A stretch of DNA of 44,115 nucleotides, from the UHGV virus genome UHGV-0177176. One strand, written 5' to 3'. This stretch comes from a virus. Of the stretch, positions 1-32,425 are shown piece by piece (the first letter of the stretch is position 1; each line of letters starts with the position of its first letter). The notes under the pieces are model-generated. The model made no database searches. It saw only the letters and a program-made list of their open reading frames with translations, and was not told the origin of the DNA. Both the position numbers and the translations under genes were made by a program.

Positions 1-3000
1 TAGCAGTGCGCACTGCTATCCGCGCAGCGGATGTAGGTACGGCTGTTTATGCACAGGACCAACTGGGTCAGTCTGCGGCAGTTACTGCTCTTGTAGCAGG
101 TGTAGCTGGTCTAGACCAACTATGGGATATCCGTAGGGCAGTGCGCGCGTCTACGGTAGCTGCCTCAACTACGAGAACTGCTGAGACCGCACCTAATACT
201 GCTACGGCAACTTCCCGCACTGCTCCGGAAGAAGTAGCAACAAGTCGCAATGGGGTAGATTCCCCTGCTGGCCCGTCTAATGCGCAAGCTGATAGTGCCG
301 CGGCTGCTAAAACCACTGACGGTTTACCAGAAGGTTTAAGCTTGAACGTGCTGGATGATGTAGAGCACCACGCTTACTCTGGTGTACGTGTACCTGGTAT
401 AGAGGTAGAAGTAAATCGCGGAGATAAATTGGTTGGTGTTGTGCAGGCTTATCGTGTAGGTGACGATTTACAAGTAGCACATACCTGGGTTGACAAATCC
501 CTGCGCGGCAAGGGGGTAGGCGCGAGCATGTACAAAGCACTGGTTAAGCGCGCTACCGATGCAGGGTATGGCAACTTGTTGTCCGATAGCTCCGTAACTG
601 CGTCTGCTCAGCAGATGTGGCGCAAACTTGGTGCTACCAAAACCAAAGATTTTAAAGAATTAACGGATGGTATTGAGGGGCAGCGTTATGCGGTCTCTGC
701 GGATGAAAAGTCCCCACTCTTTACTTTGGACTTGAAACGTCCTGTGTTTGACCTAGATGCGCCCACAACTCGTACAGCAAGGGATACTAACGTTACCGGA
801 GTAGGAGAGGGAGACACTATCCTCACTAAGGTACTGGATGAACCTATCAAAGTTCGCCGAAACAACACTGCTGCTGTTAACATGAAAGCACAGGACGTAG
901 TCCGTTTCCTTAAGACCTCTGAGCACTTATCTAAAGGTCAGAAGGCTATCCTAGACACACTGAGCGACGCGGTACAGGACGTTGATTTTAAGTTGGTGGC
1001 AGGCTCTTCTAACCGTAGCCACTACAGCTTTCCACTGGTATCAAGAACTGATAGAGGTTTTGTATCTTTACGTGCCCCTAAGAAAGCTAATGGAAGTACT
1101 TGGACAACTGTAGGTGATGCCCTACGCGCCATGGACGCCGATACTAGTCGAGTAGCAGTACACGAGCTGATTCACGCTGCCACCACTAGGGCCCTTAAGC
1201 GGAACCCTGAAATTGCTAGTAAGCTGGAAGAGGTGCGCGCTGCAATAGCAGCCGATTCAACCCTCAGTGACAAGCTTAAGTACTACGCAAGCGATGTGCA
1301 CGAGATGTTAGCTGGACTAGGTGATAGTCCTGAGTGGGTGGAGTATCTCTCTAGAACTCAATCTCCCACTGGTAAGAGTATGCTCCGTCAGATTGGCGAG
1401 TACATCATGAATGCCCTTGGAGTTCGTACTAAAGGCTCTGCTTTGGAAGATGTACTCGATGCGTATGAGGATGCTGTTAAGTGGACTGCAAAAGACTACG
1501 TAGAACAAGTTCAGAGCTTCCGCAGCGAATCCTTCCAGGACCTAGCGGATACATCAGTTAAGAATGAGGCCCTGAAAGCCCAGGCTATGATAGACACAGC
1601 TAAGCGTAAATTCGCTACTATGTTCTCACTCTATGACAATATTGCAGAAGGTAGCGAGGACCTGGCACGCCTGCTGGTATCTGATGCTACTGCTGTAGGT
1701 GGGCGTAAACCGTCTGTGGTGGACTTCAAGCGTAACCTTACGTTGGAGATGGACGCCAGTGCTAGTGTAGTTGAAGATGCTATACTCGGTGCCCTTAAGG
1801 ATAAGGGTGTAGGTTTTCTGGACCGCTTCTTCCATCGTAGCAACTTCAGAGCAGCACGAGCTGACTTAGAAGACCGCTTAGGCCGTTACCTGGACTCCGC
1901 GTACAGTGCTGAGGTTAATGGACGCCCTGTGCCTCTGCCGGACTCTGACTTGGTTCCGCTAGTAGAGGCGTATCGCAACTCCGGTTGGGCCAGTAAGTGG
2001 CATGACCACATGACTGCTGCTGGTTTAGTGGATGACGGTACTCTGGTTAAATCAGATTACTACTTCCCACGCCAGTATAGCTACGATAAGATGCGCCAAG
2101 GTATTGCAAACGGTCGCTCCCTGGATAACTACAGGGATTTATTCCGCCAGGCATTACGTGACGTGTACCCGTCTATGGAACCTGAGGTTGTTCAGCGTGT
2201 CGCTAAGGAAATGGTTGACGGCATCTACAACGGACGCACCTCGGCTTCCGGCCCTATGTGGAAGCAGCTCATCAACGGTATGGGTAATGACGAAGTAGTC
2301 ATGGCTATGCGTAATGCTGGCGTAGACGAGAGCGCAATCCAGAGCTTCCTGGCGGGTAACGTCCGGGAATCCGGTGCTACTTCTCCTGCTCGGAACCTGC
2401 GTCAACGTACTCGCTTCAACATGGACAAAGAGTACATTGTGGATGGTCAGGCTATGCGTATGCAGGACCTGATGGATACTGACGTAGCCAAGGTGATGCA
2501 CGGTTATACCAACCGTATGTCTGGTCGTGTAGGTATGGCTTATGCTGGGGTATCTGACCTCAAGACGCTGGAGACGATGATTAACGAGTCCAAACACTCT
2601 CTGGCCGATTCCGGCAAGTGGGAGAAGACCGTTAACGACGCCATCGACTTTATCCTGGGCGGGGCACCGGCTGATGCCGGGCAGATGCCGGACCTACTGC
2701 GTGCCGCGGGGAATATGGCTAACGCCACCATGCTCAAGAACTCCGGACTATACCAGCTCACTGACACGGCCCTGGCTCTGAAAGAGTTTGGTATGTCCCG
2801 AGTACTGCGCGGTATGCGTGAGCAGCCTTGGTTTAAAGAGGGTGCCGTAGCTATCCGCACCCCGGATATGGCTAGCCGCCTGGACACAATCCTGCGTGGC
2901 AATATCCAGAAGGAGATGCGCTTTCGCTGGTTGAACACCTATGCAGACGACAACTTGGACCTGACCCGTCAGGCTTCCTGGTTTAACGTCACCCAGAACG

Positions 3001-3743
3001 TTGGGCAGGCCGCTCGGCATGTTAACGGTATGAGCATGGTGCACAGATTGCAGGTGAACCTGAACTCCGGGATTGTTGCCGACGAACTCACTCAGATGTT
3101 CAAAGGTGATGCAGAGGCATTTAAACGTCTGGAGCGCTTCGGGCTTACCCGTGACATTGCAGACCGTGCTATTGCTGCCAACAAGGCTAACCCCGGTGCG
3201 ATGTTCCAGCCGGACCTGCAAATGCAAGTCGAGGTGGTAGGGACACGCATGATGGACTACCTGGTGCAACAAGTACGCACCGGTGAGACCTCGCACTTCG
3301 CACAGTTCAACCCTATCGGCAAAGTAATTGTCGGCTACCAGAGCTTCGCCCTGGCCGCCACCAACAAGATTCTGCGCCGAGAGCTGAACGATGCTGGGTG
3401 GATTGGGGTTGCTCACATCATGGCGTACCAGTTCCCGCTGATGCTGCTCGCTACTATGGCTAAGCACGGTATGGATGGCAAAGAGGCCGATACTCAGAAA
3501 CTAATCTCTGAGTCGGTTATGGGTATGAGCGCCATTGGTGGTATCTCGCTTCTGCAGGATATCTTCACTGGGGACTCTCCGCGTCACTCTCTGGCGTCTA
3601 TGGGTTACGTCACCGGGCTGCTGGGTGCTGTGCAAGCCCTGGCTACTGGGAATATGGATATCCAGACCTTTACTAAGCAGGTCCCGTTAATCCAGGAATT
3701 CGCACCTACGCGAGCTATCATCAATAACTTCGGAGACGATTAA
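1..3743 (+). CDS. Internal virion / ejection protein (gp16-like), C-terminal 1246 codons. The start codon and first 173 codons are at 43596-44115, giving ~1420 aa in total
   Basis: Long ORF with no stop upstream in the window. It lies in the same frame (positions congruent to 0 mod 3) as the ORF that runs off the 3' end, and the window length 44115 is divisible by 3. It sits directly before the tail fibre and after the gp15-like gene, as in T7/phiKMV. Stop TAA at 3741-3743. Confidence 0.85.
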   Translation, partial: AVRTAIRAADVGTAVYAQDQLGQSAAVTALVAGVAGLDQLWDIRRAVRASTVAASTTRTAETAPNTATATSRTAPEEVATSRNGVDSPAGPSNAQADSAAAAKTTDGLPEGLSLNVLDDVEHHAYSGVRVPGIEVEVNRGDKLVGVVQAYRVGDDLQVAHTWVDKSLRGKGVGASMYKALVKRATDAGYGNLLSDSSVTASAQQMWRKLGATKTKDFKELTDGIEGQRYAVSADEKSPLFTLDLKRPVFDLDAPTTRTARDTNVTGVGEGDTILTKVLDEPIKVRRNNTAAVNMKAQDVVRFLKTSEHLSKGQKAILDTLSDAVQDVDFKLVAGSSNRSHYSFPLVSRTDRGFVSLRAPKKANGSTWTTVGDALRAMDADTSRVAVHELIHAATTRALKRNPEIASKLEEVRAAIAADSTLSDKLKYYASDVHEMLAGLGDSPEWVEYLSRTQSPTGKSMLRQIGEYIMNALGVRTKGSALEDVLDAYEDAVKWTAKDYVEQVQSFRSESFQDLADTSVKNEALKAQAMIDTAKRKFATMFSLYDNIAEGSEDLARLLVSDATAVGGRKPSVVDFKRNLTLEMDASASVVEDAILGALKDKGVGFLDRFFHRSNFRAARADLEDRLGRYLDSAYSAEVNGRPVPLPDSDLVPLVEAYRNSGWASKWHDHMTAAGLVDDGTLVKSDYYFPRQYSYDKMRQGIANGRSLDNYRDLFRQALRDVYPSMEPEVVQRVAKEMVDGIYNGRTSASGPMWKQLINGMGNDEVVMAMRNAGVDESAIQSFLAGNVRESGATSPARNLRQRTRFNMDKEYIVDGQAMRMQDLMDTDVAKVMHGYTNRMSGRVGMAYAGVSDLKTLETMINESKHSLADSGKWEKTVNDAIDFILGGAPADAGQMPDLLRAAGNMANATMLKNSGLYQLTDTALALKEFGMSRVLRGMREQPWFKEGAVAIRTPDMASRLDTILRGNIQKEMRFRWLNTYADDNLDLTRQASWFNVTQNVGQAARHVNGMSMVHRLQVNLNSGIVADELTQMFKGDAEAFKRLERFGLTRDIADRAIAANKANPGAMFQPDLQMQVEVVGTRMMDYLVQQVRTGETSHFAQFNPIGKVIVGYQSFALAATNKILRRELNDAGWIGVAHIMAYQFPLMLLATMAKHGMDGKEADTQKLISESVMGMSAIGGISLLQDIFTGDSPRHSLASMGYVTGLLGAVQALATGNMDIQTFTKQVPLIQEFAPTRAIINNFGDD
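792..807 (+). promoter_or_regulatory. Copy A of the 16-nt core GTTACCGGAGTAGGAG, inside the gp16-like coding sequence; candidate internal phage promoter
   Basis: Exact 16-mer shared with 12641-12656. Chance expectation for a 16-mer recurrence in 44 kb is about 1e-5. Confidence 0.3.
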
Positions 3744-3744
3744 T

Positions 3745-6060
3745 ATGGCATACAGCTGGCAAGAGTCGGTAAAGCCTGCAGGTACACAGGATATCCAGTG
3801 CGATATTGAGTATCTGGATAAGTCCTACATTCACGTTTACTTAGATGGTGCTGAGACTACTGCCTTCACTTGGACCAGCTCCACCAATATTCGTCTGAAC
3901 TCCCCACTGTCTGCAGAGACAGTGGTGCTCCTCATTCGTAAGACTGAACGAGAGTACCTCTACATTGAGTTTGCTAGTGGTGCTCCGTTCATTGAGGGTA
4001 ACGTAGATACTCAGAACACGCAATTCCTACACCTAGCCCAAGAGCTGGTTGAGGGACGTTCTATCGAGGGATTCTACGGGGACATTAACATGCACCGTTA
4101 CCGCATCACAAACCTGGGAGACCCGGTGGATGCAAGGGACGCTGCGAACAAGCAGTATGTTGATGCCGGGGATGCCCGGCTCGATGCGCGCATAGATGCA
4201 GAGGCAGCTGCTCGCAAAGCTGCTGATGACGCTTTGGATATACGCACTACCAATCTAGAGCAGACATTCTTCAACGCTAACACCAATAGCTTTCCGTGGT
4301 GGATGGTGGTGCCCTATGACACTAAAACCATAACTCCTGGAATACCTTTTACTAAGGCTAAGATTAGGCTGAATGGCGTAACTCAGACTGCAGGTTATTC
4401 TTATAGTATCAACAATGGCACAGTAACGTTCGCAGAGACTGTGCCAGCAGGTACCTTGGTAGATATGACTATTGGTGTAGATACTGATGTTGATACAGGG
4501 GCAGTTGCGAGTATCCTAGGACTGCTTAGTTCAGACAAAGGATTTAACTACATAGGCGGGGTGCCCTTTATTTACCCGGAAGCCTACGCAGATGGTACCG
4601 GGGATTGGCGCATGGCTCTACAGGCCGCCCTGGATGCTGCACATAGTAACGCTCTTAGTGGCTCAGGCCCAACTACGGTGCTCGCCACGGGGCATTACCG
4701 CATATCCTTAAACCCCAACAGTTTGGCGGTTGCTGGTGAGTTGGCCGCAGGTCGGTCCGCACTAAATATACGCTCAGGGGTAACTCTTACCGGGGGAGGG
4801 ACTATCACCCTGAATGGGGGTGTTGGTGGGTCTTCTTCCGGGGCTATATTGACCAACTGGGACGGTAGTGCGGACTCTGTCACAATCTCGAATATAACAT
4901 TCGATGGAAACGTTTCACAGAACGCCGGGACAGGCATTACGTGCGTTAACATTCTAGATTCTGCTAACGTGGTGTGCGAGGGTGTGCGCGTACTCGGCAG
5001 TCCTTCCGGAGGTTTATACTTTAGGCGGGCAGGTTCTGGTACCTATGGCTGCTCCAATCTGACGGTGCGCGGATGTGTAGTGACTAATACTGGGTACATA
5101 GGGATACAATGCGAGCGTCCGGATGGTGCCATTATATCCGACTGTATTCTCCAGAACATTGCCGACAATGCTGTGGACATCTTCGGGAATGACGGCTCAT
5201 CCACAGCCCAGGGCTATGCAAATGGCATAATAGTCAGCGGGGTAGTGGCTCGCAACGTATCCGTGGGGGTATTCTTAGAGTCCTGTGGTAACGCGGATGT
5301 AGTTGGCTGCAGATTCGAGGAGTTTTCAAACTCCGGGGTATTCTTAAACCGGATAAACACGGCCTCGTATCAAGTCAACATTAAGTCTAACACATTCATC
5401 GGGGCCTCCTTAACCTCAAGCCAGGGTGTGCGGATGAAGAATGCTGTCGGTTATTGCAATATTGAGTCAAACATGTTCAGTAACTGTATAGACTCAATTG
5501 CGACTACCGGGGGTATGATTTATACGCATATAGGCAGGAACACGCATGAGAATATAGGGAGATGCTTCCTATATGTACCAAAAACCTCAAACGGTTGTGT
5601 GTACTCTTATATGGAGCGGCAGTATTATCGGGGAGTGCAAACAAACGGCATCCCGTATAACACCACTCCGAGAGGGTACCCATCCAGCGGAAACACTAGA
5701 TTCTACAGATTTGGTGCGGAAGCCCCGTACTCTATGTACGCAGCCGCAGTGGGGGAAGATAATTTCGTAAGGGGTGGAGGGACTCTCCCATCTAACAGCG
5801 GCTGGGGGCCGGCCTACTCCCTGTACAACAACCCGGTTGCAAACGAGACTGTTATAGCATTAGGGTCCTCCAGTCTGGCTGCTGGGGAGTTTATCCTAGT
5901 GGGCGGGTATTATTATCAAATCTATAGTGTGGCAGCATCCTACTCTGTAGTGCGGAAGTGGGATGATAGCAGCCAGGCATTCGTTGCGGGAGATTACACC
6001 TCGCTACTAAACAGCGCACTAGCTTACACTATATACCGACAAGCTTGGGGGACTATATAA
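3745..6060 (+). CDS. Tail fibre / tailspike 1. The N-terminus is a T7 gp17-like particle-binding domain, followed by a right-handed parallel beta-helix (probable polysaccharide depolymerase)
   Basis: N-terminal ~150 aa resemble the T7 gp17 N-terminus (…YRITNLGDPVDARDAANKQYVD…). The downstream region carries PbH1-like repeats (NITFDGN…GITCVN…VRGCVVTNTGYIGIQC…ILQNIADNAVDIFGNDG). The ATG is 1 nt after the gp16 stop. Confidence 0.85.
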   Translation: MAYSWQESVKPAGTQDIQCDIEYLDKSYIHVYLDGAETTAFTWTSSTNIRLNSPLSAETVVLLIRKTEREYLYIEFASGAPFIEGNVDTQNTQFLHLAQELVEGRSIEGFYGDINMHRYRITNLGDPVDARDAANKQYVDAGDARLDARIDAEAAARKAADDALDIRTTNLEQTFFNANTNSFPWWMVVPYDTKTITPGIPFTKAKIRLNGVTQTAGYSYSINNGTVTFAETVPAGTLVDMTIGVDTDVDTGAVASILGLLSSDKGFNYIGGVPFIYPEAYADGTGDWRMALQAALDAAHSNALSGSGPTTVLATGHYRISLNPNSLAVAGELAAGRSALNIRSGVTLTGGGTITLNGGVGGSSSGAILTNWDGSADSVTISNITFDGNVSQNAGTGITCVNILDSANVVCEGVRVLGSPSGGLYFRRAGSGTYGCSNLTVRGCVVTNTGYIGIQCERPDGAIISDCILQNIADNAVDIFGNDGSSTAQGYANGIIVSGVVARNVSVGVFLESCGNADVVGCRFEEFSNSGVFLNRINTASYQVNIKSNTFIGASLTSSQGVRMKNAVGYCNIESNMFSNCIDSIATTGGMIYTHIGRNTHENIGRCFLYVPKTSNGCVYSYMERQYYRGVQTNGIPYNTTPRGYPSSGNTRFYRFGAEAPYSMYAAAVGEDNFVRGGGTLPSNSGWGPAYSLYNNPVANETVIALGSSSLAAGEFILVGGYYYQIYSVAASYSVVRKWDDSSQAFVAGDYTSLLNSALAYTIYRQAWGTI

Positions 6061-6362: not shown

Positions 6363-8218
6363 TGGTATCGGTGAAGACTGCGCGAAGACTGCGCATGCTC
6401 AACCAGAAACTTACTGGTTATAGTGCGAATCCGCGCAGTATTCCCAAAGAGGAGCGCGAGGACATCGCGATGATGATGGCCGCTGCGCTAAGCGACTTCC
6501 GGGAATTTGCGTACATCGGTATGCGATTCCTGGGGTTTACACTGACGGACATGCAGGCCGACATTGCAGAGTACATGCAGAAGGGCCCTAGGAAGCGCAT
6601 GGTGGCTGCGCAGCGTGGTGAGGCTAAGTCTACACTAGCTGCGCTCTACGCTGTATGGAGGCTCATCCAGGACCAGTCCTGCCGTATCCTGATTGTATCA
6701 GGGGCGGAGAAGCAGGCGTCCGACGTAGCGAACTTAATCATTCGTATGCTGGAAACCTGGCCGCTGCTGTGCTACTTAAAGGCCGACCCTACCCGCGGGG
6801 ACCGTACTTCATTCGAAGGCTACGACGTCAACTGCGACCTGAAACCGCTGGATAAGTCTGCCAGCGTAGCGTGTGTCGGTATTACCGCGTCCCTGCAGGG
6901 GAAGCGTGCTGACCTCTTGATTCCAGATGATATTGAGACCACCAAGAACGGTTTGACACAAACCCAGCGTGAGCAGCTGCTGATGATTTCGAAAGACTTC
7001 GCGGCTATCTGTACGCACGGGGACACGCTGTACCTGGGTACACCGCAGACCAAGGACAGTATTTACAAGACCCTGCCGGGGCGTGGCTTCGAGGTCCGCG
7101 TGTGGCCCGGACGCATCCCGTCTGTTGAAATGGAAGAACGATATGGAAGTACACTTGCTCCTTATATACTGCAGCTCATTGAGCGGGGTTATAAACGCAC
7201 CGGCTTCGGCGTCGACGGGACGCTAGGGGAGAGCACCGACATTGGTCGCTACGACGAGGATGCGCTGATTGAGAAGGAACTGGACTTTGGTCCAGAGGGC
7301 TTCCAGCTGCAGTACATGCTCGACACGACCCTGTCTGACCAGATGCGTACCCGTATCAAGCTGTCGGATATGCTTGTATACTCCGGTAGTCTGGACTCTT
7401 CTCCTGAGACCTTCTCCTACATTGCGGACCGCCGGTACCTGTACCAGCATGAGCATGAAGGGATTATGGGTCAGCAGATGTACTCTCCGGCATTCTACGG
7501 GGATATGCACTTGCCGTATCAGCACAAGGTGCTGGTGGTGGACCCGGCTGGTTGTGGCGGGGATGAAGTCTCCTATGCTGCAGGCGGAGCTGCGAACTCA
7601 TACATTCACCTGTTCTCCGTTGGGGGTTTCCAAGGAGGTGTAAGCACTGAGAATATCGACAAGCTCATTGACCTGTGCGTAGAGTTGGACATCTCGGACA
7701 TGGTGGTGGAGAGCAACATGGGGCACGGCACTGTGTCCATGCTTATCCTGAACCGTTTACGAGAGCGTCGTCTTGCTGGTATCGGTGTGCGTGACATCAA
7801 CAACACCACACAGAAAGAGCGCCGTATTATCGACACAATCAGCCCAGTAACTCGACGTCACCGCCTGGTAGTGCATGAGCGTGCTATCCACGACGATATC
7901 GGAACCTGTATGTTATATTCCCGGGACCGTCGCTGGCTGTACTCTGCGTTCGCGCAGCTCGCGGGTATTACGTATGACCGCGGTAGTCTCGCTAAGGATG
8001 ACCGAGCGGACGCCGTCGCTATGATGGTGGCAGTGCTGAACGGGCACTTGGTAGAAGACGAGAAAGTAGTAGCTGAGCGTGAGTCCGAGAAGATGGCCCT
8101 GGCCTTCATTGAGAATCCGCTGGATTGGGCACAGAACAAAGTGTCTAAGGGACTTCGCGGTGTAGCGGCTCGGTTGCAGAACCGAGGCAGAGGTAAACAA
8201 CATAGAGGAAGAAGATAA
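6362..8218 (+). CDS. Terminase large subunit (gp19-like, DNA maturase B)
   Basis: 618-aa ORF with size and position typical of T7-group TerL. TAATG overlap with the upstream gene. Confidence 0.85.
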   Translation: MVSVKTARRLRMLNQKLTGYSANPRSIPKEEREDIAMMMAAALSDFREFAYIGMRFLGFTLTDMQADIAEYMQKGPRKRMVAAQRGEAKSTLAALYAVWRLIQDQSCRILIVSGAEKQASDVANLIIRMLETWPLLCYLKADPTRGDRTSFEGYDVNCDLKPLDKSASVACVGITASLQGKRADLLIPDDIETTKNGLTQTQREQLLMISKDFAAICTHGDTLYLGTPQTKDSIYKTLPGRGFEVRVWPGRIPSVEMEERYGSTLAPYILQLIERGYKRTGFGVDGTLGESTDIGRYDEDALIEKELDFGPEGFQLQYMLDTTLSDQMRTRIKLSDMLVYSGSLDSSPETFSYIADRRYLYQHEHEGIMGQQMYSPAFYGDMHLPYQHKVLVVDPAGCGGDEVSYAAGGAANSYIHLFSVGGFQGGVSTENIDKLIDLCVELDISDMVVESNMGHGTVSMLILNRLRERRLAGIGVRDINNTTQKERRIIDTISPVTRRHRLVVHERAIHDDIGTCMLYSRDRRWLYSAFAQLAGITYDRGSLAKDDRADAVAMMVAVLNGHLVEDEKVVAERESEKMALAFIENPLDWAQNKVSKGLRGVAARLQNRGRGKQHRGRR

Positions 8219-8592: not shown

Positions 8593-8603
8593 GGAAAGTA
8601 CAT

Positions 8604-10017: not shown

Positions 10018-10027
10018 GTGAGGGTAC

Positions 10028-12037: not shown

Positions 12038-12187
12038 AGCATCTGGCAATCACAGGGGTATCCTTGGAGCGCTCTTGGGGTATCTCTAGGGTATCTCTGT
12101 AGGAGTTCATGGGCGCACGTCTATATCTGGACCTAAAATTTATTAGACTTACGCGAGGGCCTCCCTCACCCTCAGCGCGCCCAATTG

Positions 12188-12233
12188 CCCCCATAGGGGG
12201 GTGCCTAGGGAGAATTTAGGGGGGGGGCACCCC
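12188..12233. repeat. Compound palindrome: CCCCC-ATA-GGGGGG, plus the inverted repeat GGGGTGCC…GGCACCCC flanking a G9 homopolymer
   Basis: Read directly: cccccatagggggg at 12188-12201, GGGGTGCC at 12198-12205, GGCACCCC at 12226-12233, G9 at 12219-12227. Confidence 0.8.
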
Positions 12234-12600
12234 TAGTGGGCTGCTTGGGCCTGCTAGTGCGCACCAGCGGGCCTCAGTGGCTCTCTGCGCTGCGCTAGGG
12301 CTATCGCTAGTGCTACCCTACGGCTATCCCTGTGCGTTCACTGTGGGGCCGCTAGGGCGCTCTATGGGGCGCTGGAGGTGCGCTCTGCCTTGCTTATTTT
12401 GTGCGCCTCAGTGTGGCACCTAGTGGGGCCATAGTGGACCACCTAGTGCGCCGGCAGAGCGTCACAGTGCTATCACTAGTGCGCACTCGGCTATCCATTG
12501 GCTATCCTTAGCGCTTTACATTGTGCTTATTATATGCTACGCTGCGCGCTCCCCACTAGGGCGCACATCCACTATCCGCCACTATCCCTAGAGCTATCCC
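12233..12600. repeat. Array of dispersed short direct repeats (CTAGTG[C/G] at least 6 times; GCTATCC at least 6 times; CTAGGGCGC 2 times)
   Basis: CTAGTG occurs at about 12233, 12254, 12308, 12420, 12443, 12474 (and 12856). CTATCC occurs at about 12300, 12324, 12491, 12502, 12572, 12582, 12594. This is analogous to the short-repeat arrays in T7 terminal repeats. Confidence 0.6.
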
Positions 12601-12633: not shown

Positions 12634-12656
12634 AAATGAAGTTACCGGAGTAGGAG
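12634..12656 (+). promoter_or_regulatory. Copy B of the conserved motif AAATGAAGTTACCGGAGTAGGA(G); candidate phage-RNAP promoter in an OL-like position
   Basis: Exact 22-mer shared with 32404-32425. The 16-nt core GTTACCGGAGTAGGAG is shared with 792-807. Confidence 0.4.
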
Positions 12657-12810
12657 GGTTTTAGGGAACTACATACACACTACACACTACTACTCACTAG
12701 TATCCCCTAGTAATGCCCTGTATTACGACCGTAGGGAGTAAGCATTACCTACATATTAACCGCATTGCTCCGTGTCCTTTCACTTCGTACGGACACTACG
12801 CACTGCCTTA

Positions 12811-12860
12811 TGTAGTATTGGTTAGTATTGGTTAGCATTGGTTAGTAGTGGCTAGTGCCA
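12811..12860. repeat. Tandem 10-bp repeat (GTTAGTATTG, about 5 units, degenerate at the 3' end)
   Basis: tgtagtattg|gttagtattg|gttagcattg|gttagtagtg|gctagtgcca. A 10-bp phase suggests an iteron-like or protein-binding array. Confidence 0.75.
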
Positions 12861-12889
12861 TCCATAGTGTGGTTATAAGTCCTTGCCCT

Positions 12890-12960
12890 GCTTACTCTTT
12901 TTGCTCTTAAGGATAAATATTTGCAAAAACTTTAAAATAATACTTGCTTCTTTTGGTCTG
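12890..12960. other. AT-rich island in an otherwise ~53% GC genome
   Basis: ctttttgctcttaaggataaatatttgcaaaaactttaaaataatacttgcttctttt. It lies adjacent to the 10-bp array and upstream of the sigma70-like promoters. Confidence 0.6.
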
Positions 12961-13075
12961 TTGGCGCTATAGTTCAATCACCGGGAGGCACTGAGGCGCT
13001 AACCGGGGTCGAGCCGGGAGGCTCTGCCGGATTAAAGCTAGATGGTGTGAAGGGTTAGATACTCAATAAAAAGAG

Positions 13076-13104
13076 TTGACACCGCGAAGAACATAAGCTA
13101 GATT
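13076..13104 (+). promoter_or_regulatory. Sigma70-like early promoter P1 (TTGACA, 17 nt spacer, TAGATT)
   Basis: Perfect -35 at 13076-13081, 17-nt spacer, -10 TAGATT at 13099-13104, A-rich sequence upstream. It lies ~410 nt before the first early gene, as with T7 A1-A3. Confidence 0.5.
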
Positions 13105-13736: not shown

Positions 13737-13745
13737 TTACAGCCT

Positions 13746-13769
13746 ATAGCATCCTATAGGGGGTGCTAT
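13746..13769 (+). promoter_or_regulatory. Intergenic RNA hairpin H1 (9-bp stem ATAGCATCC/GGGTGCTAT, loop TATAGG) with conserved 3' flank GCTATGTGAA; candidate RNase III site or attenuator
   Basis: Starts 10 nt after the stop of the first early gene. Near-identical element at 14528-14549 with a compensatory A-U to G-C change. Confidence 0.5.
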
Positions 13770-13813
13770 GTGAAGTAATTCGTTAAATAAACAACCAATA
13801 AATGAGGTGTATC

Positions 13814-14517: not shown

Positions 14518-14527
14518 TGGCAAGCCT

Positions 14528-14549
14528 ATAGCGTCCTACGGGGCGCTAT
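14528..14549 (+). promoter_or_regulatory. Intergenic RNA hairpin H2 (stem ATAGCGTCC/GGGCGCTAT, loop TACG), paralogue of H1
   Basis: Same flanks (CCTATAGC…GCTATGTGAA) as H1. The stem has a compensatory G-C where H1 has A-U. Confidence 0.5.
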
Positions 14550-14577
14550 GTGAATGCAACTAGCGTATGGGTTTCAA

Positions 14578-21795: not shown

Positions 21796-21817
21796 TGTAG
21801 GTAAATAGGAGGCTACC

Positions 21818-22146: not shown

Positions 22147-24509
22147 CAACCAGTATAATGCACATAGACTTGGAGACAGAGAACAATGAATATTACGGCT
22201 CTAAAGCAAGCCCATACTGCCCTGACAACTATGTTGTTGAGTCAGCATGGCGTATCGACACGACACAGGCTGACGGTACTACCACTGTTGGCGCGACTCA
22301 ATCGGTGCGCTTCAATTCAAGAGCTGATTTCTTGGCGGGAAACAGTGCAGCAGAAGGCTGCCGGTGGTTTCATATCCCAGAGGATTGCTGGCTTATTGTT
22401 GCGCACAACGCAGCCTATGAGATTTCTTGGTTTCTCACGTACCAGCGGCAGCAGTTTGAGGCCTTCCTCAAGCGCGGCGGCAGGGTGTTCTGCACAATGC
22501 ACGGGGAATACATCGCCTCGGACTTTCAGAGCATGTATCCGTCACTGGACGAGACGGCTCCTAAGTACGGCGGTACGCACAAAGTAGATGGGGTTAAGAT
22601 CCTCTGGGAGCAAGGTGTGTTAACCTCCCAGATTGATCCTATACTACTGCACGACTACCTAGTTAACGGGGACATCCCGAACACAGCTCTGTGCTTCTAC
22701 GGTCAGTGCAGTATCTTCGCCCAGCGTAATCAGATGCAGTACGTGTGGGAGCGTATGGATGCGTTGCTGGCTTGGGCCTACTGCGAATGGTTCGGCCTGT
22801 TCGTGAACATACCTATTGCACGCAAGAACCAAGAGGAGCAGGAGAAGCGTATCCTGGAGATTAAGCAGGAGCTGCAGCAGTATATCCCCAAGGACTTGCC
22901 GGAGACGTTGGATTTCAACTTCGGGTCTGACTTCCACATGTCTGCGCTGGTGTATGGCGGCCCTATCAAGTACCGCAAGAAGGTGCCCTACGACCCGCCG
23001 CAGTATGTGAAGGTGGATGCCTATCTAGTGCAGGGTACAGAGGGGACGTTTGTACCTTGTGAAAGTACGGATGTCAGTGGTGCACACAACTTCGTTACTT
23101 ACAAGGCCGGTAAGAACAAGGGCTTACCAAAAGTTTTCCGCATAGATACAGAGGAAGAGAAACTCAAATGGGAAGAGGACCTCTACTTCTGCCCGGGCCT
23201 GGTTAACATTCAGGAACTACCCGAGGTACTCCGAGAGAAGTATGCTGAGCGTGGGGAGTTCAGACAAGCCCGGAATCTGCAGGATGGGACACCAATCTAC
23301 AGCACCAGTACTGATGCTATGGAAGCGCTAGCCCGTCACGGATTTGAGTTCTGTCGGTTGGTGAACGAGCTAGGTGCTCTGGAGAAGGACACAGGAACCT
23401 ACTATCTACGAACGGAGTACAACGAAGATGGGTCAGTTAAAAAGACCTCAGGCATGCTTCAATACGTCATACCTCAGAACCCTGATGGTTCAGGTATTAT
23501 CCACCACCGTCTTAACACCTGTGCCACTGTCACCGGGCGACTGTCAGGTTCTAACCCGAATCTCCAGAATCTACCGCGCGACGGGACGAGCCGGGTTAAG
23601 CAGATGTTCACTTCTCGTTTCGGAGAATCTGGTCGCATCACTGAGGTTGACTACTCGGCCCTGGAAGTGGTTATGTCTTGTGTTCACACTGGAGACCTTA
23701 AACTACTGGGGCTGCTGCAGTCCGGCACGGATATGCACTGTTACCGATTAGCATTTAAGGAGAACAAAACCTACGAAGAGATGTATGACCTGTGCCATAA
23801 CGCTGATGGGCCAGACTACAAGTACTGGAAGCAGCAGCGTACGGATATTAAGCCACCTAGTTTTGCTGCGCAGTACGGTGCTACGGCTAAGGGTATAGCC
23901 TTTGCTACTGGGTGTACTGTAGAGTATGCACAGTCATTCCTGGATAATGAGGCTAAGCTGTTCCCAACAACCATCGGATTCCGCGCTATTGTCAAGGAAG
24001 AAGTAGAGCGCACCGGAGCAGCTGGGCGTATATACCGGGAGCAAGCTGATGACGGCAGTTATCGTATCTACCGCATTGGCACCTGGACTAGCCCAGCAGG
24101 TGCTCGCTACAGCTTCCGCCAGAAGGAGCAGTGGAAGGAAGTAGTCCCTGGTCAGCGCAAACAAAAGGTGATGGACTACAAAGAAACTGAGATGGCTAAC
24201 TACTGGTGTCAGGGTGAGGCATTCTTCCTGATGGCGGTAGCAGCTGGTATGGTTCTGCGTGCAATGCTGGCACGGGATTGGTTCAATAATCAGGTGTGCT
24301 TGATTACGAACGTACACGATGCATTGTATCTGGACAGTGCTAATCCAGAGGTAGGCAGAGAAGCGAGCCTGTTGGTTAAGCAGTGTATGGAGGATGCACC
24401 TAAGCGTATACACCAGCTATGGCCTAACTACGGCATCATTGGGCAAGTCCCGTTCCCAGCGGAAGCTGAAATGGGTATGAGTATGTATAGTAAGGAGAAA
24501 GTAGAATGA
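22143..24509 (+). CDS. DNA polymerase, family A (T7 gp5-like) with 3'-5' exonuclease
   Basis: Exo I HIDLETE. Pol motif A DYSALEVV. Motif B R…KPPSFAAQYG. Motif C VHDA. SD GGGAGG. Start chosen at ATG 22143 (the track ORF starts at 22125). Confidence 0.9.
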   Translation: MTTSIMHIDLETENNEYYGSKASPYCPDNYVVESAWRIDTTQADGTTTVGATQSVRFNSRADFLAGNSAAEGCRWFHIPEDCWLIVAHNAAYEISWFLTYQRQQFEAFLKRGGRVFCTMHGEYIASDFQSMYPSLDETAPKYGGTHKVDGVKILWEQGVLTSQIDPILLHDYLVNGDIPNTALCFYGQCSIFAQRNQMQYVWERMDALLAWAYCEWFGLFVNIPIARKNQEEQEKRILEIKQELQQYIPKDLPETLDFNFGSDFHMSALVYGGPIKYRKKVPYDPPQYVKVDAYLVQGTEGTFVPCESTDVSGAHNFVTYKAGKNKGLPKVFRIDTEEEKLKWEEDLYFCPGLVNIQELPEVLREKYAERGEFRQARNLQDGTPIYSTSTDAMEALARHGFEFCRLVNELGALEKDTGTYYLRTEYNEDGSVKKTSGMLQYVIPQNPDGSGIIHHRLNTCATVTGRLSGSNPNLQNLPRDGTSRVKQMFTSRFGESGRITEVDYSALEVVMSCVHTGDLKLLGLLQSGTDMHCYRLAFKENKTYEEMYDLCHNADGPDYKYWKQQRTDIKPPSFAAQYGATAKGIAFATGCTVEYAQSFLDNEAKLFPTTIGFRAIVKEEVERTGAAGRIYREQADDGSYRIYRIGTWTSPAGARYSFRQKEQWKEVVPGQRKQKVMDYKETEMANYWCQGEAFFLMAVAAGMVLRAMLARDWFNNQVCLITNVHDALYLDSANPEVGREASLLVKQCMEDAPKRIHQLWPNYGIIGQVPFPAEAEMGMSMYSKEKVE

Positions 24510-24727
24510 CTATTAAACCGGGTAGTATTGTGGAGATACTAGGACTTGGGCCGGAACCCTTAGAACCTAGACATCGTGATTACTTTGCACCAGGCACTCA
24601 GCATCGTGTGATATCTTATGACCCCGAACTCTGGGAGGTGGAGTTAATCAATCCAGACAACAACTCAGAGAAGCCTGGGGATGGTGTTACCTTCTTCTCT
24701 GGGGAGTACAAACTTATCGTGGAGTGA
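24506..24727 (+). CDS. Hypothetical small protein (73 aa)
   Basis: ATGA-coupled to the DNA polymerase. Confidence 0.5.
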   Translation: MTIKPGSIVEILGLGPEPLEPRHRDYFAPGTQHRVISYDPELWEVELINPDNNSEKPGDGVTFFSGEYKLIVE

Positions 24728-24891
24728 TGATATAGGTGGACCCTTGGGTGGTGTAGGGGGTTAGGGTAACACGAGAATTAGCTGGGGTCAAGCAGATAAT
24801 TAAATAAAATTATTTGTTGACTCTGGCTTGATTCTGTGATTTACCGAGAATTAATGTGATACGAGTAGGAACAACATAAGAGAGGCAACCC

Positions 24892-25869
24892 TTGGCTAAA
24901 ATTAGTTTAATTAACCTGTTCAGCAAAGACCAGCACGAGGAAGTGTTGAGTTACTACAAAGACAATGCAGAGGCAGCCGCAGCCTATACAGCTATGACGA
25001 ACGGGAAATATCCAGTGTCCCGCCAGCTTGTACGCTACTGGCGCAGCATCTTCATGGATAACAAGGGTAGCAAGTCAAAGGCTAACAATGCCCTGATGCA
25101 AGCCCGAAAACTAATTCAACCTTCCCCAACGGATGATATTGGGGATACATTTGTACCTGAAACCTGCAGACGTATACTGGTTATTGGTGATCTGCACGAG
25201 CCTTACACACACCCGGACGCCTACGACTTTTTGCGTAATGTTCGGGATGAATACTGCCCAGACATCGTGGTGCAGATAGGGGATGAAACAGACGGGCACG
25301 CCATTAGCTTTCACGATAGCAGCCCGGAGTTGGATAGTGCTGGGGTGGAGTTAGAGAAGGCCAAGCTCGGTCTGGAGAGGCTTCACGACCTGTTCCCTAA
25401 CATGCTCCTGTGCGACTCTAACCATGGCTCCCTTGTATACCGTAGAGCCAAAGCCCACGGACTCCCGGTGCAGTTCATTAAGAAATACCGGGACATCCTG
25501 TTCCCAGAGCACGGTGCGCCGGGGTGGAGTTGGGGTGATGCTTGGGACTTGGAGACGCCGCTGGGCGTTGTACGGTTCCAGCACCAGGTGTCTGGGGACC
25601 TGCTGCTCAACGCGGCTCATGAACGTAAGTCCATGGTAATAGGACACTTCCATGGGAAGTTAGATATACAGTATGCCGCGAGCAGCACCGCCTTGTACTT
25701 TGGTGCGCACTGCGGTTGTTTAATCGACAATAAGAGTCTGGCCTTTGCTTACGGCAAACTGTCAAGAAGCAAGCCGATTCTAGGGTGTATGGTGATTACA
25801 GATGGATGCCCACAAATCATACCCATGCTGCTTGACGACTCCGGTAGGTGGGTTGGACGTAACCGTTAA
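24892..25869 (+). CDS. Calcineurin-like metallophosphoesterase
   Basis: GDLHEP (DxH), QIGDETDGH (GDxxD), SNHG (GNH), GHFHG (GHxH). Apparent TTG start with SD GAGAGG. Confidence 0.75.
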   Translation: MAKISLINLFSKDQHEEVLSYYKDNAEAAAAYTAMTNGKYPVSRQLVRYWRSIFMDNKGSKSKANNALMQARKLIQPSPTDDIGDTFVPETCRRILVIGDLHEPYTHPDAYDFLRNVRDEYCPDIVVQIGDETDGHAISFHDSSPELDSAGVELEKAKLGLERLHDLFPNMLLCDSNHGSLVYRRAKAHGLPVQFIKKYRDILFPEHGAPGWSWGDAWDLETPLGVVRFQHQVSGDLLLNAAHERKSMVIGHFHGKLDIQYAASSTALYFGAHCGCLIDNKSLAFAYGKLSRSKPILGCMVITDGCPQIIPMLLDDSGRWVGRNR

Positions 25870-25920
25870 GCCCTGCATCTGCACATAAATATTATTTGAA
25901 CTAAACGAGGACATAATTAT

Positions 25921-26754: not shown

Positions 26755-26806
26755 GCAAGCCTATTACTAACTAATACGGCCCCGCCTGGGGCCTTAGAGG
26801 AAGCCT

Positions 26807-27085: not shown

Positions 27086-27459
27086 TGGATAGAGTATTAG
27101 ACGCATATAAGAATCTGGCTATTGCAGTAGGCGATGCAAAGTATGACGCAGTGGCGCACGGGGTACACGCCATACACCTGGATGCAATGTACGACGCACT
27201 GGACAAACTGGCGGCCCTGTACGGTATGGACCTGGAGCTGGCCGCTACCGCCTTCAAGGAACACAACGACCTGGCGGCACATGCTGATAAGTTGAAGGGG
27301 GACGATCTGGCAGTTATCCGCATCGTAGGTACTCTCAGTATCGGGTTGGCGGAGATTGGTTCCTGTATATACGATGTAGACCAGAGCCTGCGTACGCCGG
27401 AAGTAATCGGGGACATGCTTGGTACCGTGCTGGTGCTGTCTGAGTTGGGGTCGTGCTGA
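27085..27459 (+). CDS. Hypothetical protein (124 aa)
   Basis: TAATG-coupled. Confidence 0.55.
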   Translation: MDRVLDAYKNLAIAVGDAKYDAVAHGVHAIHLDAMYDALDKLAALYGMDLELAATAFKEHNDLAAHADKLKGDDLAVIRIVGTLSIGLAEIGSCIYDVDQSLRTPEVIGDMLGTVLVLSELGSC

Positions 27460-27617
27460 TGCTGTACTTACATCGTGCAATTTACGTAGTTTTGATTCTC
27501 CCACTAATCCCCTTGGCGGGACTCTGCTATCTGTGTGATAAGCTCACCAAGGCGAAGTGGGCTGAACGTTGGGTTAACTGGGCCGATAAGAAGGCCCGCG
27601 ATATTACGGGGCGCTAA
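27459..27617 (+). CDS. Small hydrophobic protein (52 aa, one predicted TM helix)
   Basis: ATG in TGATG overlap. IYVVLILPLIPLAGLCYLC. TAATG-coupled to the exonuclease. Confidence 0.4.
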   Translation: MLYLHRAIYVVLILPLIPLAGLCYLCDKLTKAKWAERWVNWADKKARDITGR

Positions 27618-28585: not shown

Positions 28586-28742
28586 GTTATACTACGAGGG
28601 GAAACATGATGAACTTGAAACTATTCTGGATGCGCTGCGTGAACGAGCACCCAAAACACATCGAAGAACGGTTGAGCATTTGGATTCTCTCATTCACGAC
28701 AATGCTCTGCTGGATGTAGTGGGGGAGATTGAACTATGTTAG
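28542..28742 (+). CDS. Hypothetical small protein (66 aa)
   Basis: SD AGGAG before the ATG at 28542. It overlaps the 3' end of the exonuclease. Confidence 0.4.
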   Translation: MAKMSAKEMSLRAIELYYEGKHDELETILDALRERAPKTHRRTVEHLDSLIHDNALLDVVGEIELC

Positions 28743-28911
28743 AGATGGGTAGAGAGTATACTTGGGGTGCTGCGTGGTGTGTGTACATATTGGAGCCCGC
28801 CCCACAGCAAGGAATACAGGTTCGGTGTACAAACACAGGAGAGGTGATGTCTCCAGTACTAACTTTAGCCCACATAAGGTCTGCGCAACTGTGGGAGGGG
28901 TTCAGATACGT

Positions 28912-29334
28912 ATGAGTCTACGTAAGATTACACGTGCCCAGATTCGTTCTGTGGCAATCAAGCTGGCTAAGGACCAGGGCGGGCTGTGCCTGCTCTGTGG
29001 TAAGCCGTTGGACTTTACAATCAGAGGGGTGACTGGTGATTCTGTTGTTGTTGACCATTGTCACACTACTGGGCGTATCCGGGGTGCTCTGCATCGCTCA
29101 TGCAATGGCGGAGAAGGGAAAGTGGCCTCTGCGGCTGGGCGTTGGATTGTTGGGAGCATGCAATCTTCTAGCGCTATTGCTGAATCTCTGCGTAGAGTTG
29201 CCGACTACCTAGACCGCGAACCCACGGATATGCTATACTATACGCATAAGACGCCGGAAGAGCTGGCGCAAGCACAGAAGCTCAAGGCCCGCAAGGCCAG
29301 AGCACGACGCAAAGCACGGGAGACTATTAAATGA
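28912..29334 (+). CDS. Endonuclease VII-like Holliday-junction resolvase
   Basis: GLCLLCGKPL…VVDHCHTTGRIRGALHRSCNGGEG matches T4 endoVII GKCLICQREL…HLDHDH…RGLLCNLCNAAEG. SD GGGAGGGG. Confidence 0.8.
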   Translation: MSLRKITRAQIRSVAIKLAKDQGGLCLLCGKPLDFTIRGVTGDSVVVDHCHTTGRIRGALHRSCNGGEGKVASAAGRWIVGSMQSSSAIAESLRRVADYLDREPTDMLYYTHKTPEELAQAQKLKARKARARRKARETIK

Positions 29335-29789
29335 GTAAGGTCAAAGTAGGTGATAGGGTGGTGCGTAGACATGAACATCGCAACTATATTTGGGAAGATT
29401 TCTGTCGGCATATTGAGGTTCCTTCGGGGGCCCCTATGCGTATCACCAAGGTACTGGGCGAAAGTGCGCTAATACTAGAGGGTCACGACAAAGCCCCTTG
29501 GTCCATCCCTTGCTTCCATCTGGTAGAAGCTGAGAGTGCACCAGAACGATCGAAATCGGCGGATGCAGTAAACTCACCTCAGCACTACCAGTTATTCCCG
29601 GACCTGGAAGCTATTGTGGTGATTGCCCGCAGCATGACCCAGAACCAGTTCTACGGTTACTGCTTGGGGAACCGACTCAAGTACCGCCTACGTGCCGGGA
29701 ACAAGGACAAGCTGGAGCAGGATATTGCTAAGTCCGACAAGTACTTAGAGCTGTACGAACAGCACAAGGGAGAGTGCATTGACGCCTAG
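29331..29789 (+). CDS. Hypothetical protein (152 aa) with N-terminal KVKVGDRVVRR module and a conserved phage C-terminal domain (SPQHYQ…GNRLKYRLRAG)
   Basis: ATGA-coupled. Confidence 0.6.
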   Translation: MSKVKVGDRVVRRHEHRNYIWEDFCRHIEVPSGAPMRITKVLGESALILEGHDKAPWSIPCFHLVEAESAPERSKSADAVNSPQHYQLFPDLEAIVVIARSMTQNQFYGYCLGNRLKYRLRAGNKDKLEQDIAKSDKYLELYEQHKGECIDA

Positions 29790-29933
29790 TGCATGGTGCC
29801 ACCAGATGTGGCAAGCAGCAATAGAGCGGGGTGATGAAAGCTCCGCTAATGACTACCTGGAGATGTACAATCTCTGGTTAAGTCGAAACCAGTAATTAGA
29901 AATACCGGACATAACCAAGGAGGTTAAGCGCCT

Positions 29934-32402
29934 ATGATTAGCGCCCTGAATACGGTTGTAGTACCAGAGGAAGCACTGGTGGAACGCCAGTTGGAGCTTG
30001 AAGAGACCTACAAGATTCGCGGCATTGAACGTGCTCGCAAATTGATTACCGATGCTCTACAAAACGGCGGGATTATGAACCTGCCTATGACTCAGCGCAT
30101 GCTAACCTCTGCGTACGACGTGGCCTCTGCAGCCATTGAGGAAATGCGTAATGTCAAAGCCCCGGGTATCGGTGGAAAGTACCGCCGATTCCTACGCTTA
30201 GTCCCCTTGGATGTCCTAACTACTCTGAGCCTGTGCACAATGTTTGAGGCGTTCAGTGTTGCCCCTGGTGAGTCCGCCAGTCGCCGCCAGACAGCTCAGG
30301 CAGTGATGTCCGCTCTGGGTAGGAATGTACAGTCAGAGCTGCTGGCCCTACAACTACGTAATGTTGCCCCAGCGTATATGGACCGGGTATATGAATACCT
30401 CACTGAGCGCCGTACTAAGTCGCCTACGCACATTCTGCGTACGCTCCGCGCCAGTGCTGAGAACGTGCACTATGGGCATGAGCCTTGGACCAACGCTCAG
30501 AATATTTCTGTGGGACGTCTGCTGTGTTCCGCAGTGTTTGAGACAGGGCTGTTCCAGTGGAAGACTGGTAGCGGGAACTTGAGTATGCTCTATCCCGCAG
30601 ATAATGTTATGGAAGCATTTCAGCAGTTAGTGGAGTCTGCTGACACTGTAACTATGAAGCCTCCGATGCTGGTACCGCCGGTGCAACATACTACACTGTG
30701 GGATGGTGGATACCTCACCCCAATCGATAACCGTGGGACGTACCACAACTCACACATTGACCACGCCAGACTGCGTGAAGTAGCGGAAGCATTTAAGTCT
30801 GCGGACGGTATCAAGAAGGCGCTTAATAAGGCGCAGGAAACTCCTTATCGCATTAATAAGCGCATCCTAGAATTGGTTCAGGAGGCTCGTGCAAACGGCA
30901 TAGGTATCGGTATGCCTCGCTCAGTACCAGAGCCGAAACCGGAGTGGTACTTAGATGGTGTACCGAAAGAGAATTACACCGAAGAGGAGCTGGACCGCTT
31001 CGGAGAGTGGAAGACGCGTATGTCCTTATGGTACAGCGCCGACCGTAAACGTGTGTCGCAACTACGTAGCCTATTGACCACGCTAGAGATGGCAGAGGAA
31101 TTCAAAGATGAGAAAGCCCTGTACTTCCCAACCTGCGTGGATTGGCGGTACCGGCTGTACTTCAAGTCCTCACTGCACCCCCAAGGTTCTGATTTGCAGA
31201 AGGCACTTCTTGAATTCGGACGAGGTAAACCTCTGGGAGAGAGAGGGTTATTCTGGCTTAAAGTGCACGTCGCTACCTGCTTTGGTTATGACAAAACCTT
31301 ATTCGAAGACCGTGCAGCTTGGGTTGATGCAAACTTTGCAGAGATTGAGCAGCTCGCGGATTCTCCTTTTGATTGCCCTGCTTTTGCCTCCGCAGACAGC
31401 CCCTGGTGCTTCCTAGCAGCCGCTATCGACCTGGTTAATGCTGTACGTTCTGGATGCCCAGAAGAGTATATTAGCCGAATCCCAGTTGCTATGGATGCTA
31501 CAAACTCAGGTGGGCAGCACCTCTCAGCGCTCCTGAGAGACCCTGTGGGCGGACGCTTGACGAACCTGTACTGGGAAGGTAACGACAAGAAAGCGGACCT
31601 GTACATGGACGTGAAGCGCCGTACGGACGAGAAGGTGATACTGGACCTGGACAAAGAGGATTTCGTTATCCAGAGCACGTACTGGAGAGAGAACGAGATT
31701 ACTCGCAGCATGACCAAGCGCCCAAGCATGACCTACTTCTACAGCGCCACGGTACGTAGCTGCAGCGACTACATCTTTGCAGGGGCCTGTGAAGAGGGGT
31801 ATGAAGGAACAGACACGCACAGTCTCTGGAACTTATCCTGCTACCTTGCACCTAGAATGCGTAGCGCTATTGAGGAAGCTAACCCGGCAGCAGCAGCAGC
31901 CATGGGGTATCTGCAGAACCTCGCTAGGCGTGTACCTGCTAGTCAGCACCTGCAGTGGAAGACACCGCTTGGCGGGCTTGTGATGAACCGATACACACAG
32001 CGCGAAGAAGTGCGTGTACGTATTGACTGTATGAACCTCACTATCATGCGTGTGCATAATCGGGATTTCAAGACCTGCAACAAGCGCAAGGCAGCCTCTG
32101 GAATTGCCCCGAACTTTGTGCATAGCCTGGATAGCACGCACTTGATGATGGTGCTCTGCGCGGCGGAGGGGCTGGATATTGTGCCGATTCACGACTCCTT
32201 GGCTACTCACGCAGCTGATGTTGATGCCCTGCACCGACACATCCGGGAGCAGTTTGTGAAGCTGTATGAAGAGCACGATCTTCTGGGGGATATTACTAGG
32301 GCTGCTGCTGCAGCGGGGGCAGACTTAACGGACCTGGACATGCCTGCGGTGGGTACATTGGATATCCGGCAAGTGCTGGAATCACCTTTCTTTTTCTGCT
32401 GA
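29934..32402 (+). CDS. DNA-directed RNA polymerase, single-subunit T7-like
   Basis: Motif A AMDATNSGGQHLSALLRD (T7: AFDGSCSGIQHFSAMLRD). Motif B RSMTKRPSMTYFYSAT. Motif C PIHDSLATH. SD AAGGAGG. The late position immediately upstream of the structural genes is phiKMV-like. Confidence 0.92.
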   Translation: MISALNTVVVPEEALVERQLELEETYKIRGIERARKLITDALQNGGIMNLPMTQRMLTSAYDVASAAIEEMRNVKAPGIGGKYRRFLRLVPLDVLTTLSLCTMFEAFSVAPGESASRRQTAQAVMSALGRNVQSELLALQLRNVAPAYMDRVYEYLTERRTKSPTHILRTLRASAENVHYGHEPWTNAQNISVGRLLCSAVFETGLFQWKTGSGNLSMLYPADNVMEAFQQLVESADTVTMKPPMLVPPVQHTTLWDGGYLTPIDNRGTYHNSHIDHARLREVAEAFKSADGIKKALNKAQETPYRINKRILELVQEARANGIGIGMPRSVPEPKPEWYLDGVPKENYTEEELDRFGEWKTRMSLWYSADRKRVSQLRSLLTTLEMAEEFKDEKALYFPTCVDWRYRLYFKSSLHPQGSDLQKALLEFGRGKPLGERGLFWLKVHVATCFGYDKTLFEDRAAWVDANFAEIEQLADSPFDCPAFASADSPWCFLAAAIDLVNAVRSGCPEEYISRIPVAMDATNSGGQHLSALLRDPVGGRLTNLYWEGNDKKADLYMDVKRRTDEKVILDLDKEDFVIQSTYWRENEITRSMTKRPSMTYFYSATVRSCSDYIFAGACEEGYEGTDTHSLWNLSCYLAPRMRSAIEEANPAAAAAMGYLQNLARRVPASQHLQWKTPLGGLVMNRYTQREEVRVRIDCMNLTIMRVHNRDFKTCNKRKAASGIAPNFVHSLDSTHLMMVLCAAEGLDIVPIHDSLATHAADVDALHRHIREQFVKLYEEHDLLGDITRAAAAAGADLTDLDMPAVGTLDIRQVLESPFFFC

Positions 32403-32403
32403 T

Positions 32404-32425
32404 AAATGAAGTTACCGGAGTAGGA
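32404..32425 (+). promoter_or_regulatory. Copy C of the 22-mer AAATGAAGTTACCGGAGTAGGA; candidate late phage promoter. Its 3' end supplies the SD for the ORF at 32426
   Basis: Exact 22/22 match to 12634-12655. It lies immediately after the RNAP stop (32400-32402). Confidence 0.45.

Follow-up and report, generated by a model that had tools for sequence, protein, structure and literature searches.

The virus genome UHGV-0177176, a stretch of 44,115 nucleotides (nt) that was analysed whole and is referred to here as the window, contains a short repeat in three copies that are very probably strong (class S) promoters of the phage's own single-subunit RNA polymerase (RNAP), of the Drulisvirus/KP34 type. 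The copies are homologous to and syntenic with promoters mapped in phage KP34, and one of their bases covaries with the polymerase across related genomes; these observations point to initiation at the same sites in the window phage. The promoter class itself is already known, and the window represents a one-base variant of it that matches a change in the DNA-reading loop of the RNAP. The three predicted promoters are as follows:

12637-12652, + strand: predicted left-end phage-RNAP promoter, TGAAGTTACCGGAGTA; homologue of KP34 475-490 (S2), about 475 nt from the inferred left end.
32407-32422, + strand: predicted main late promoter, TGAAGTTACCGGAGTA; homologue of KP34 S1, 22197-22212.
788-803, + strand: predicted internal promoter, TAACGTTACCGGAGTA; homologue of KP34 33721-33736.

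A first-pass annotation of the window had singled out the 22-mer AAATGAAGTTACCGGAGTAGGA as an exact duplication that chance could not produce. Two identical + strand copies were found, at 12634-12655 and 32404-32425, and no match to the 22-mer was obtained in 100 dinucleotide-preserving shuffles, even when 3 mismatches were allowed. The 16-nt core of the repeat, GTTACCGGAGTAGGAG, is perfect at 12641-12656 and has one mismatch at 32411-32426; its reported recurrence inside the gp16-like gene was also correct, with an exact copy at 792-807. The unit was redefined as a 16-mer followed by G at +1, occupying 12637-12652, 32407-32422 and 788-803, so that the third copy starts 4 nt further upstream than the previously given 792. 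The 22-mer comprises this 16-mer plus 3 nt of identical flank on either side. The predicted +1 is the G at 12653, 32423 and 804, and GGA follows the 16-mer in 3/3 copies. A consensus search of the window returned only these three perfect matches, all on the + (coding) strand, with none on the minus strand. Matches to the 18-nt consensus with 4 mismatches were also present on the + strand at 1682, 28056 and 36104, each within a long + strand open reading frame (ORF), with none on the other strand; the shuffle expectation for such matches is about 1 for both strands together.

The KP34 RNAP was purified by Lu et al. (2019; PMC6834552, Front Microbiol 10:2487), who defined its strong promoter as 5'-T(A/G)ATGTTACAGGAGTA-3' with the next G as +1. 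In-vitro transcription and 5' rapid amplification of cDNA ends (5'-RACE) placed the start at nt 22213, right after TAATGTTACAGGAGTA, a 16-mer that lies at KP34 22197-22212, 5 nt past the RNAP stop codon, and is repeated at 33721-33736 (PMC6834552). A second 16-mer, TGATGTTACAGGAGTA, lies at KP34 475-490; the two were equally active, the 14-mer common to them was much weaker on its own, and the KP34 RNAP alone sufficed for in-vitro initiation at the strong promoter (PMC6834552). The window sites pair one to one with KP34 475, 22197 and 33721, with homologous flanks, the same orientation and the same GGA start. They share the 16-bp length of the KP34 strong promoter and 14 of its 16 bases (TGAAGTTACCGGAGTA compared with S2, TAACGTTACCGGAGTA with S1), but differ in having C for A at -7 (3/3 sites) and A or C for T at -13. 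Positions -7 and -13 are naturally polymorphic among relatives. The features of the KP34-type class found in the window are the 16-bp sequence, the three syntenic sites, the cognate RNAP and, as described below, indirect evidence of protein-DNA co-adaptation. The first-pass claim that this lineage lacks an established promoter consensus does not hold, since Lu et al. (PMC6834552) had defined one and PhageProm (PMC11880802; NAR 2025, gkaf140) used within-genome repeats to predict 467 KP34-like promoters across 135 genomes.

Alignment identifies the window as a KP34-like (Drulisvirus, Autographiviridae) phage genome. It is collinear with KP34 (NC_013649) end to end at 72-91% identity, and its left-end region matches 243 phage records, mainly Klebsiella. 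The same alignment indicates a circularly permuted assembly in which the direct terminal repeat has been collapsed into one copy. Because KP34 nt 1 corresponds to window 12163, and the right end of KP34 to 12073-12385, the collapsed repeat was placed at approximately 12163-12385, and the left physical end of the genome would lie near 12163. The following features define the surroundings of the promoters:

12163-12385, no strand: direct terminal repeat, one collapsed copy (inferred); 12163 corresponds to KP34 nt 1, and 12073-12385 to KP34 43504-43809.
13076-13104: sigma70-type promoter TTGACA-17-TAGATT, the first such, 442 nt downstream of 12634.
29934-32402, + strand: single-subunit T7-family RNAP gene, 822 aa; PF00940 E=1e-89, T7 RNAP in PDB E=1e-68.
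32040-32051, + strand: RNAP specificity-loop codons 703-706 (T-I-M-R), aligned by phmmer to T7 RNAP 753-756.

The 822-aa ORF had been called the phage RNAP, an identification borne out by both profile and structure matches (PF00940, T7 RNAP), and its product is 96% identical to the KP34 RNAP (locus L014). A position equivalent to that of T7 phiOL, about 440 bp upstream of the sigma70 promoters, had been proposed for the left-end copy; the distance from 12634 to 13076 is 442 nt, and the redefined copy ends 424 nt upstream of the first sigma70 promoter. This copy has a phiOL-type placement in that it points rightward and is set about 250 nt inward of the inferred terminal repeat (12163-12385), before the sigma70 promoter at 13076. 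The post-RNAP copy does lie between the RNAP stop and the first late gene, as first described: the RNAP ORF ends at 32402, the copy at 32407-32422 follows 4 nt past the stop codon, and the predicted +1 (32423) is 3 nt ahead of the ATG at 32426, where the next ORF begins. The internal copy is located in the gp16-like internal virion protein gene at codons ~261-267 (N-V-T-G-V), and its -7 and -13 are synonymous third-codon positions. A GNAT acetyltransferase domain (PF00583, 5e-07) covers residues 136-226 in the N-terminal part of the same gp16-like ORF (6-3743), just upstream of the promoter embedded at codon ~261. In GenBank records of relatives, only host-type promoters are annotated.

To determine how widely the post-RNAP copy is conserved, 65 IMG/VR loci were gathered by RNAP protein alone, 64 of which include the downstream region. 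The motif GTTAC[AC]GGAGTAGG was found after the RNAP gene, directly before the ATG of the next gene, in 63/64 of these relatives, and the arrangement GGAGTAGG[AG]ATGAA was present in all 63 relatives with the motif. The comparison with KP34-type genomes suggested in the first-pass annotation thus found the motif conserved, with 3/3 window copies syntenic with KP34 and 63/64 post-RNAP loci carrying it. The promoter stays beside the first late gene even when approximately 350-490 nt are inserted after the RNAP stop. Inserts of this size occur in about a dozen relatives (for example L025, L026, L028, L009 and L058, with the promoter at ~5820-5956 versus 5472), and an HNH endonuclease is annotated at the insert position in some GenBank relatives (KMI3/5/6, ZX11). 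The post-RNAP variants were distributed as follows:

TAATGTTACAGGAGTA: 31 loci.
TGAAGTTACCGGAGTA (the window form): 16 loci.
TAATGTTACCGGAGTA: 15 loci.
TGATGTTACCGGAGTA: 1 locus.

Of the three copies, the one at the left end is the most tolerant of change. In eight TIMR-type genomes TGAAGTAACCGGAGTA, with -10 T to A, was seen at this site only, and the left-end copy of one SAVL genome has -6 G to C. One relative, L056, with an RNAP identity of just 58%, lacks the KP34-type motif; the sequence GAGACACGTT[GA]TAGAG[GA]GACA occurs twice at ~5450-5560 of this locus, right after the RNAP gene, and is a candidate promoter of that lineage.

The base at -7 was then compared with the RNAP specificity loop. 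A viral-contig scan with GTTACNGGAGTAGGA gave, among the matches listed, mostly chance matches in unrelated contigs and was replaced by longer and flank-anchored patterns, after which promoter sites were joined to RNAP loci by contig for approximately 60 related genomes. The window loop reads TIMR where that of KP34 reads SAVL, in cognate enzymes that are both 822 aa and about 96% identical. Across the sample, SAVL at RNAP residues 703-706 (window numbering) was paired with -7 A (78/78 sites) and TI(M/L/V)R with -7 C (69/69 sites), with no exceptions and no mixed genomes. The pairing holds at all three genomic locations, 12-20 kb from the RNAP gene, and was also complete in a left-end sample anchored on the flank CTTTCATTCGRAAGCTA instead of on the motif (21/21 SAVL, 18/18 TI(M/L/V)R). 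When all columns within 60 nt either side of each site were examined, complete association was observed at -7 only; the maxima for other columns were 0.65, 0.31 and 0.46. The loop type changes 3-8 times on neighbour-joining trees made from the remainder of the RNAP, indicating that the genomes are mosaic and that the pairing does not reflect a single clade split. The A and C versions of the internal site read ACA and ACC, which both encode Thr, indicating a constraint on DNA and not on protein. The proposal that the repeats are promoters for the phage's own RNAP was in this way supported, by homology to the validated KP34 sites and by perfect -7/loop covariation in about 60 relatives.

The window RNAP has T211/G212 at codons 211-212, the state usual with SAVL loops, yet its loop is TIMR, a combination that is a sign of recombination inside the RNAP gene. 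By alignment to T7, T211/G212 lie near the start of the intercalating hairpin.

The variable patch can be placed on the T7 enzyme. Using phmmer, window R696, D698, R706 and H708 were aligned to T7 RNAP R746, N748, R756 and Q758. In the T7 RNAP-promoter complex, those specificity-loop residues, in a beta-hairpin, read bases ~-7 to -11, and the patch 703-706 is therefore located in the DNA-reading hairpin. KP34 has Leu at the position of window Arg706, and -7C puts G on the template strand. A template G is the classic partner of arginine, and on the most likely reading Arg706 of the window type would contact the template-strand G opposite -7C. A broader proposal, which is tentative and judged slightly less probable than its converse, is that Drulisvirus phages contain two co-adapted pairs, SAVL/-7A (KP34) and TI(M)R/-7C (the window, F19, SU503 and SU552A), in which the loop patch, chiefly Leu706Arg, would switch the -7 preference, and mutual discrimination between the pairs would be strong enough for selection to purge mixed recombinants.

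Eriksson et al. (2015; PMC4411677, Table 5) had already listed the SAVL/TIMR dimorphism. No link of the loop dimorphism to a promoter base was found in the searchable literature, outside which the supplementary tables of gkaf140 lie, and a literature search for the string GTTACCGGAGTA returned no paper. The protein-DNA covariation analysis of PMC11880802 concerns T7-like pairs only. The coupling of loop residues 703-706 to promoter -7 is thus a modest new point.

Several observations weigh against the promoter assignment and its structural explanation. Promoter function in the window phage is predicted from homology to KP34. With RNAP identities of 92-100% among the relatives sampled, few truly independent events lie behind the covariation. 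The 3-nt leader from the predicted +1 at 32423 to the first late ATG is awkward for translation. The alignment of the loop to T7 has only moderate posterior support, and the equivalence of R706 and T7 R756 is uncertain by 1-2 residues, because Eriksson et al. (PMC4411677) number the loop substitutions 751-755, not 753-756.

Three other functions of the repeat were considered. That the motif is a localized single-strand nick site, as in phiKMV-like phages, is very unlikely. The nick consensus of the phiKMV group is 5'-CGACNNNNNCCTACTCCGG-3' (CGACN5CCTACTCCGG; PMC4482731, bioRxiv 10.1101/619015), and CCGGAGTAGG, which spans -8 to +2 of the window sites, matches exactly, as reverse complement, the final ten bases of that consensus; as with the window repeat, the nick motif is present three times in phiKMV (L276: 6323, 13995 and 24137). 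In phiKMV, however, it is the coding strand that carries the motif, immediately ahead of major gene blocks, an orientation opposite to that in the window, and the CGAC-N5 half (GTCG 5 nt downstream on the top strand) is missing at 3/3 window sites, which leaves the full consensus absent. The sole nick detected in the Drulisvirus fHe-Kpn01, at nt 7873, is not at a promoter position. KP34-type genomes carry CAGGAGTAGG, yet the KP34 sites are proven promoters (PMC6834552), and the true phiKMV/LUZ19 promoters differ in sequence. Nicking as the primary function was rejected on these grounds. The likeness of the decamer to the phiKMV nick consensus may be coincidence or a distant relationship.

It is extremely unlikely that the repeat is mainly a translation signal, with GGAG/AGGA acting as a Shine-Dalgarno (SD) sequence in a reused ribosome-binding module. 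The GGAG at 32417-32420 sits 5 nt ahead of the ATG at 32426, an arrangement kept in 63 relatives, and it probably serves as an SD on read-through transcripts. The copy at 12637, however, has no ORF start behind it, the first ORF being more than 850 nt off, and the copy at 788 lies within a reading frame; conservation from -16 to -7 and the covariation of -7 with the loop would be left unexplained. A neutral duplication or gene-conversion remnant, or a site for another protein such as a replication or packaging factor, is exceedingly improbable: the left-end and post-RNAP copies do agree at 3 more bases per side, and the left-end-like TGAAG form at the post-RNAP copy in 16 relatives hints at copy-to-copy conversion, but a neutral remnant would neither stay at three syntenic sites in about 60 genomes with variable flanks nor change a single base in concert with the RNAP loop, and KP34 RNAP alone initiates in vitro on the homologous sequence (PMC6834552).

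As promoters of the phage RNAP, the three copies suggest the following transcription layout. The RNAP would bind the 16-bp duplex T(A/G)A(N)GTTAC(C)GGAGTA, melt AGTA and start at the next G, giving transcripts that begin with GGA. The copy at 32407 would fire the late structural operon right after the polymerase gene, and the copy at 788 would re-initiate for the distal late genes, namely the rest of gp16, the tail fibre, terminase, lysis genes and tailspike. The copy at 12637 lies immediately inward of the left terminal repeat and ahead of the host-type early promoters, a placement like that of T7 phiOL. The end of the capsid gene cluster is marked by one further feature, at which transcripts started by the 32407 promoter are likely to be attenuated:

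37225-37252, + strand: terminator made of a hairpin and a T-run, downstream of the capsid genes; identical in sequence to the terminator annotated in KP34 (PMC4411677, Table 3).

This layout resembles that of T7, which likewise places a phage-RNAP promoter close to its left end, ahead of the host promoters (phiOL), and has a few strong late promoters (class III). In sequence, the window promoters are largely unrelated to those of T7, sharing only a TAAT-like 5' start and TA followed by G at the initiation site; the window has 3 strong sites compared with 17 in T7, and its RNAP gene lies at the end of the middle region. The LUZ19/phiKMV RNAP promoters, 5'-GgtTATGTCACacACAnnGG-3' (Putzeys et al. 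2024), are likewise few and positioned after the RNAP gene and within the structural region, but they differ in sequence, and Phikmvvirus adds an antisense early-region copy, whereas the window has no minus-strand copy. The KpnP RNAP (PMC12272871), a T7-like 907-aa enzyme with an unrelated promoter, was set aside as not relevant for comparison.

Other promoter-like elements were identified in the window. The first-pass annotation had noted an octamer at about 24862, preceded by a half-site. The octamer GAGTAGGA is indeed present at 24863-24870, with TTACCGAG upstream at 24841-24848, but the element does not belong to the promoter class as a half-site copy and is instead a degenerate 18-mer that does not covary:

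24852-24869, + strand: degenerate promoter look-alike TAATGTGATACGAGTAGG; 13/16 to KP34 S1, 4 mismatches to the window-type consensus.

The intergenic gap that holds this look-alike is strongly conserved and follows the DNA polymerase cluster. Across 9 relatives, which include both RNAP types, the element shows no variation, and it therefore does not covary at -7. A scan of 24600-25000 for sigma70 promoters found none. It could act as a weak or middle promoter, for which +1 is predicted at 24868, or it may have another role.

A second element corresponds to the weak promoter W of KP34 (PMC6834552):

32355-32374, + strand: ACATTGGATATCCGGCAAGT, in the 3' end of the RNAP gene; homologue (17/20) of KP34 'weak promoter' W (ACTTTGGACATCCGTCAAGT).

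If W fires in the window, its start would be at about 32375. Translation of the first late ORF (32426) may proceed mostly from read-through transcripts or those of the W promoter, or from a near-leaderless mRNA. KP34 has a similar arrangement, with the transcription start site at 22213 and the start of gene 38 at 22216 (compare +1 at 32423 and ATG at 32426 in the window).

The 32-nt hairpin-containing motif that Eriksson et al. (2015; PMC4411677) proposed as a phage promoter, AGCCTATAGC...GCTATGTGAA, has two copies in the window, at 13741-13774 and 14523-14554. It was rejected as a phage promoter, as KP34 RNAP gives no in-vitro transcription from this motif (PMC6834552).

For annotation, the analysis provides three phage-RNAP promoters with predicted start sites and would explain the layout of late-gene transcription in the window phage. 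The KP34 promoter class is already used in biotechnology, since the KP34 RNAP yields clean 3' ends. If the two co-adapted pairs exist as proposed, they would represent a minimal natural specificity switch for a second phage-RNAP family, usable as orthogonal in-vitro transcription systems. The coupling of -7 to the loop gives a directly testable hypothesis for how KP34-family RNAPs read their promoters and for the design of orthogonal pairs.

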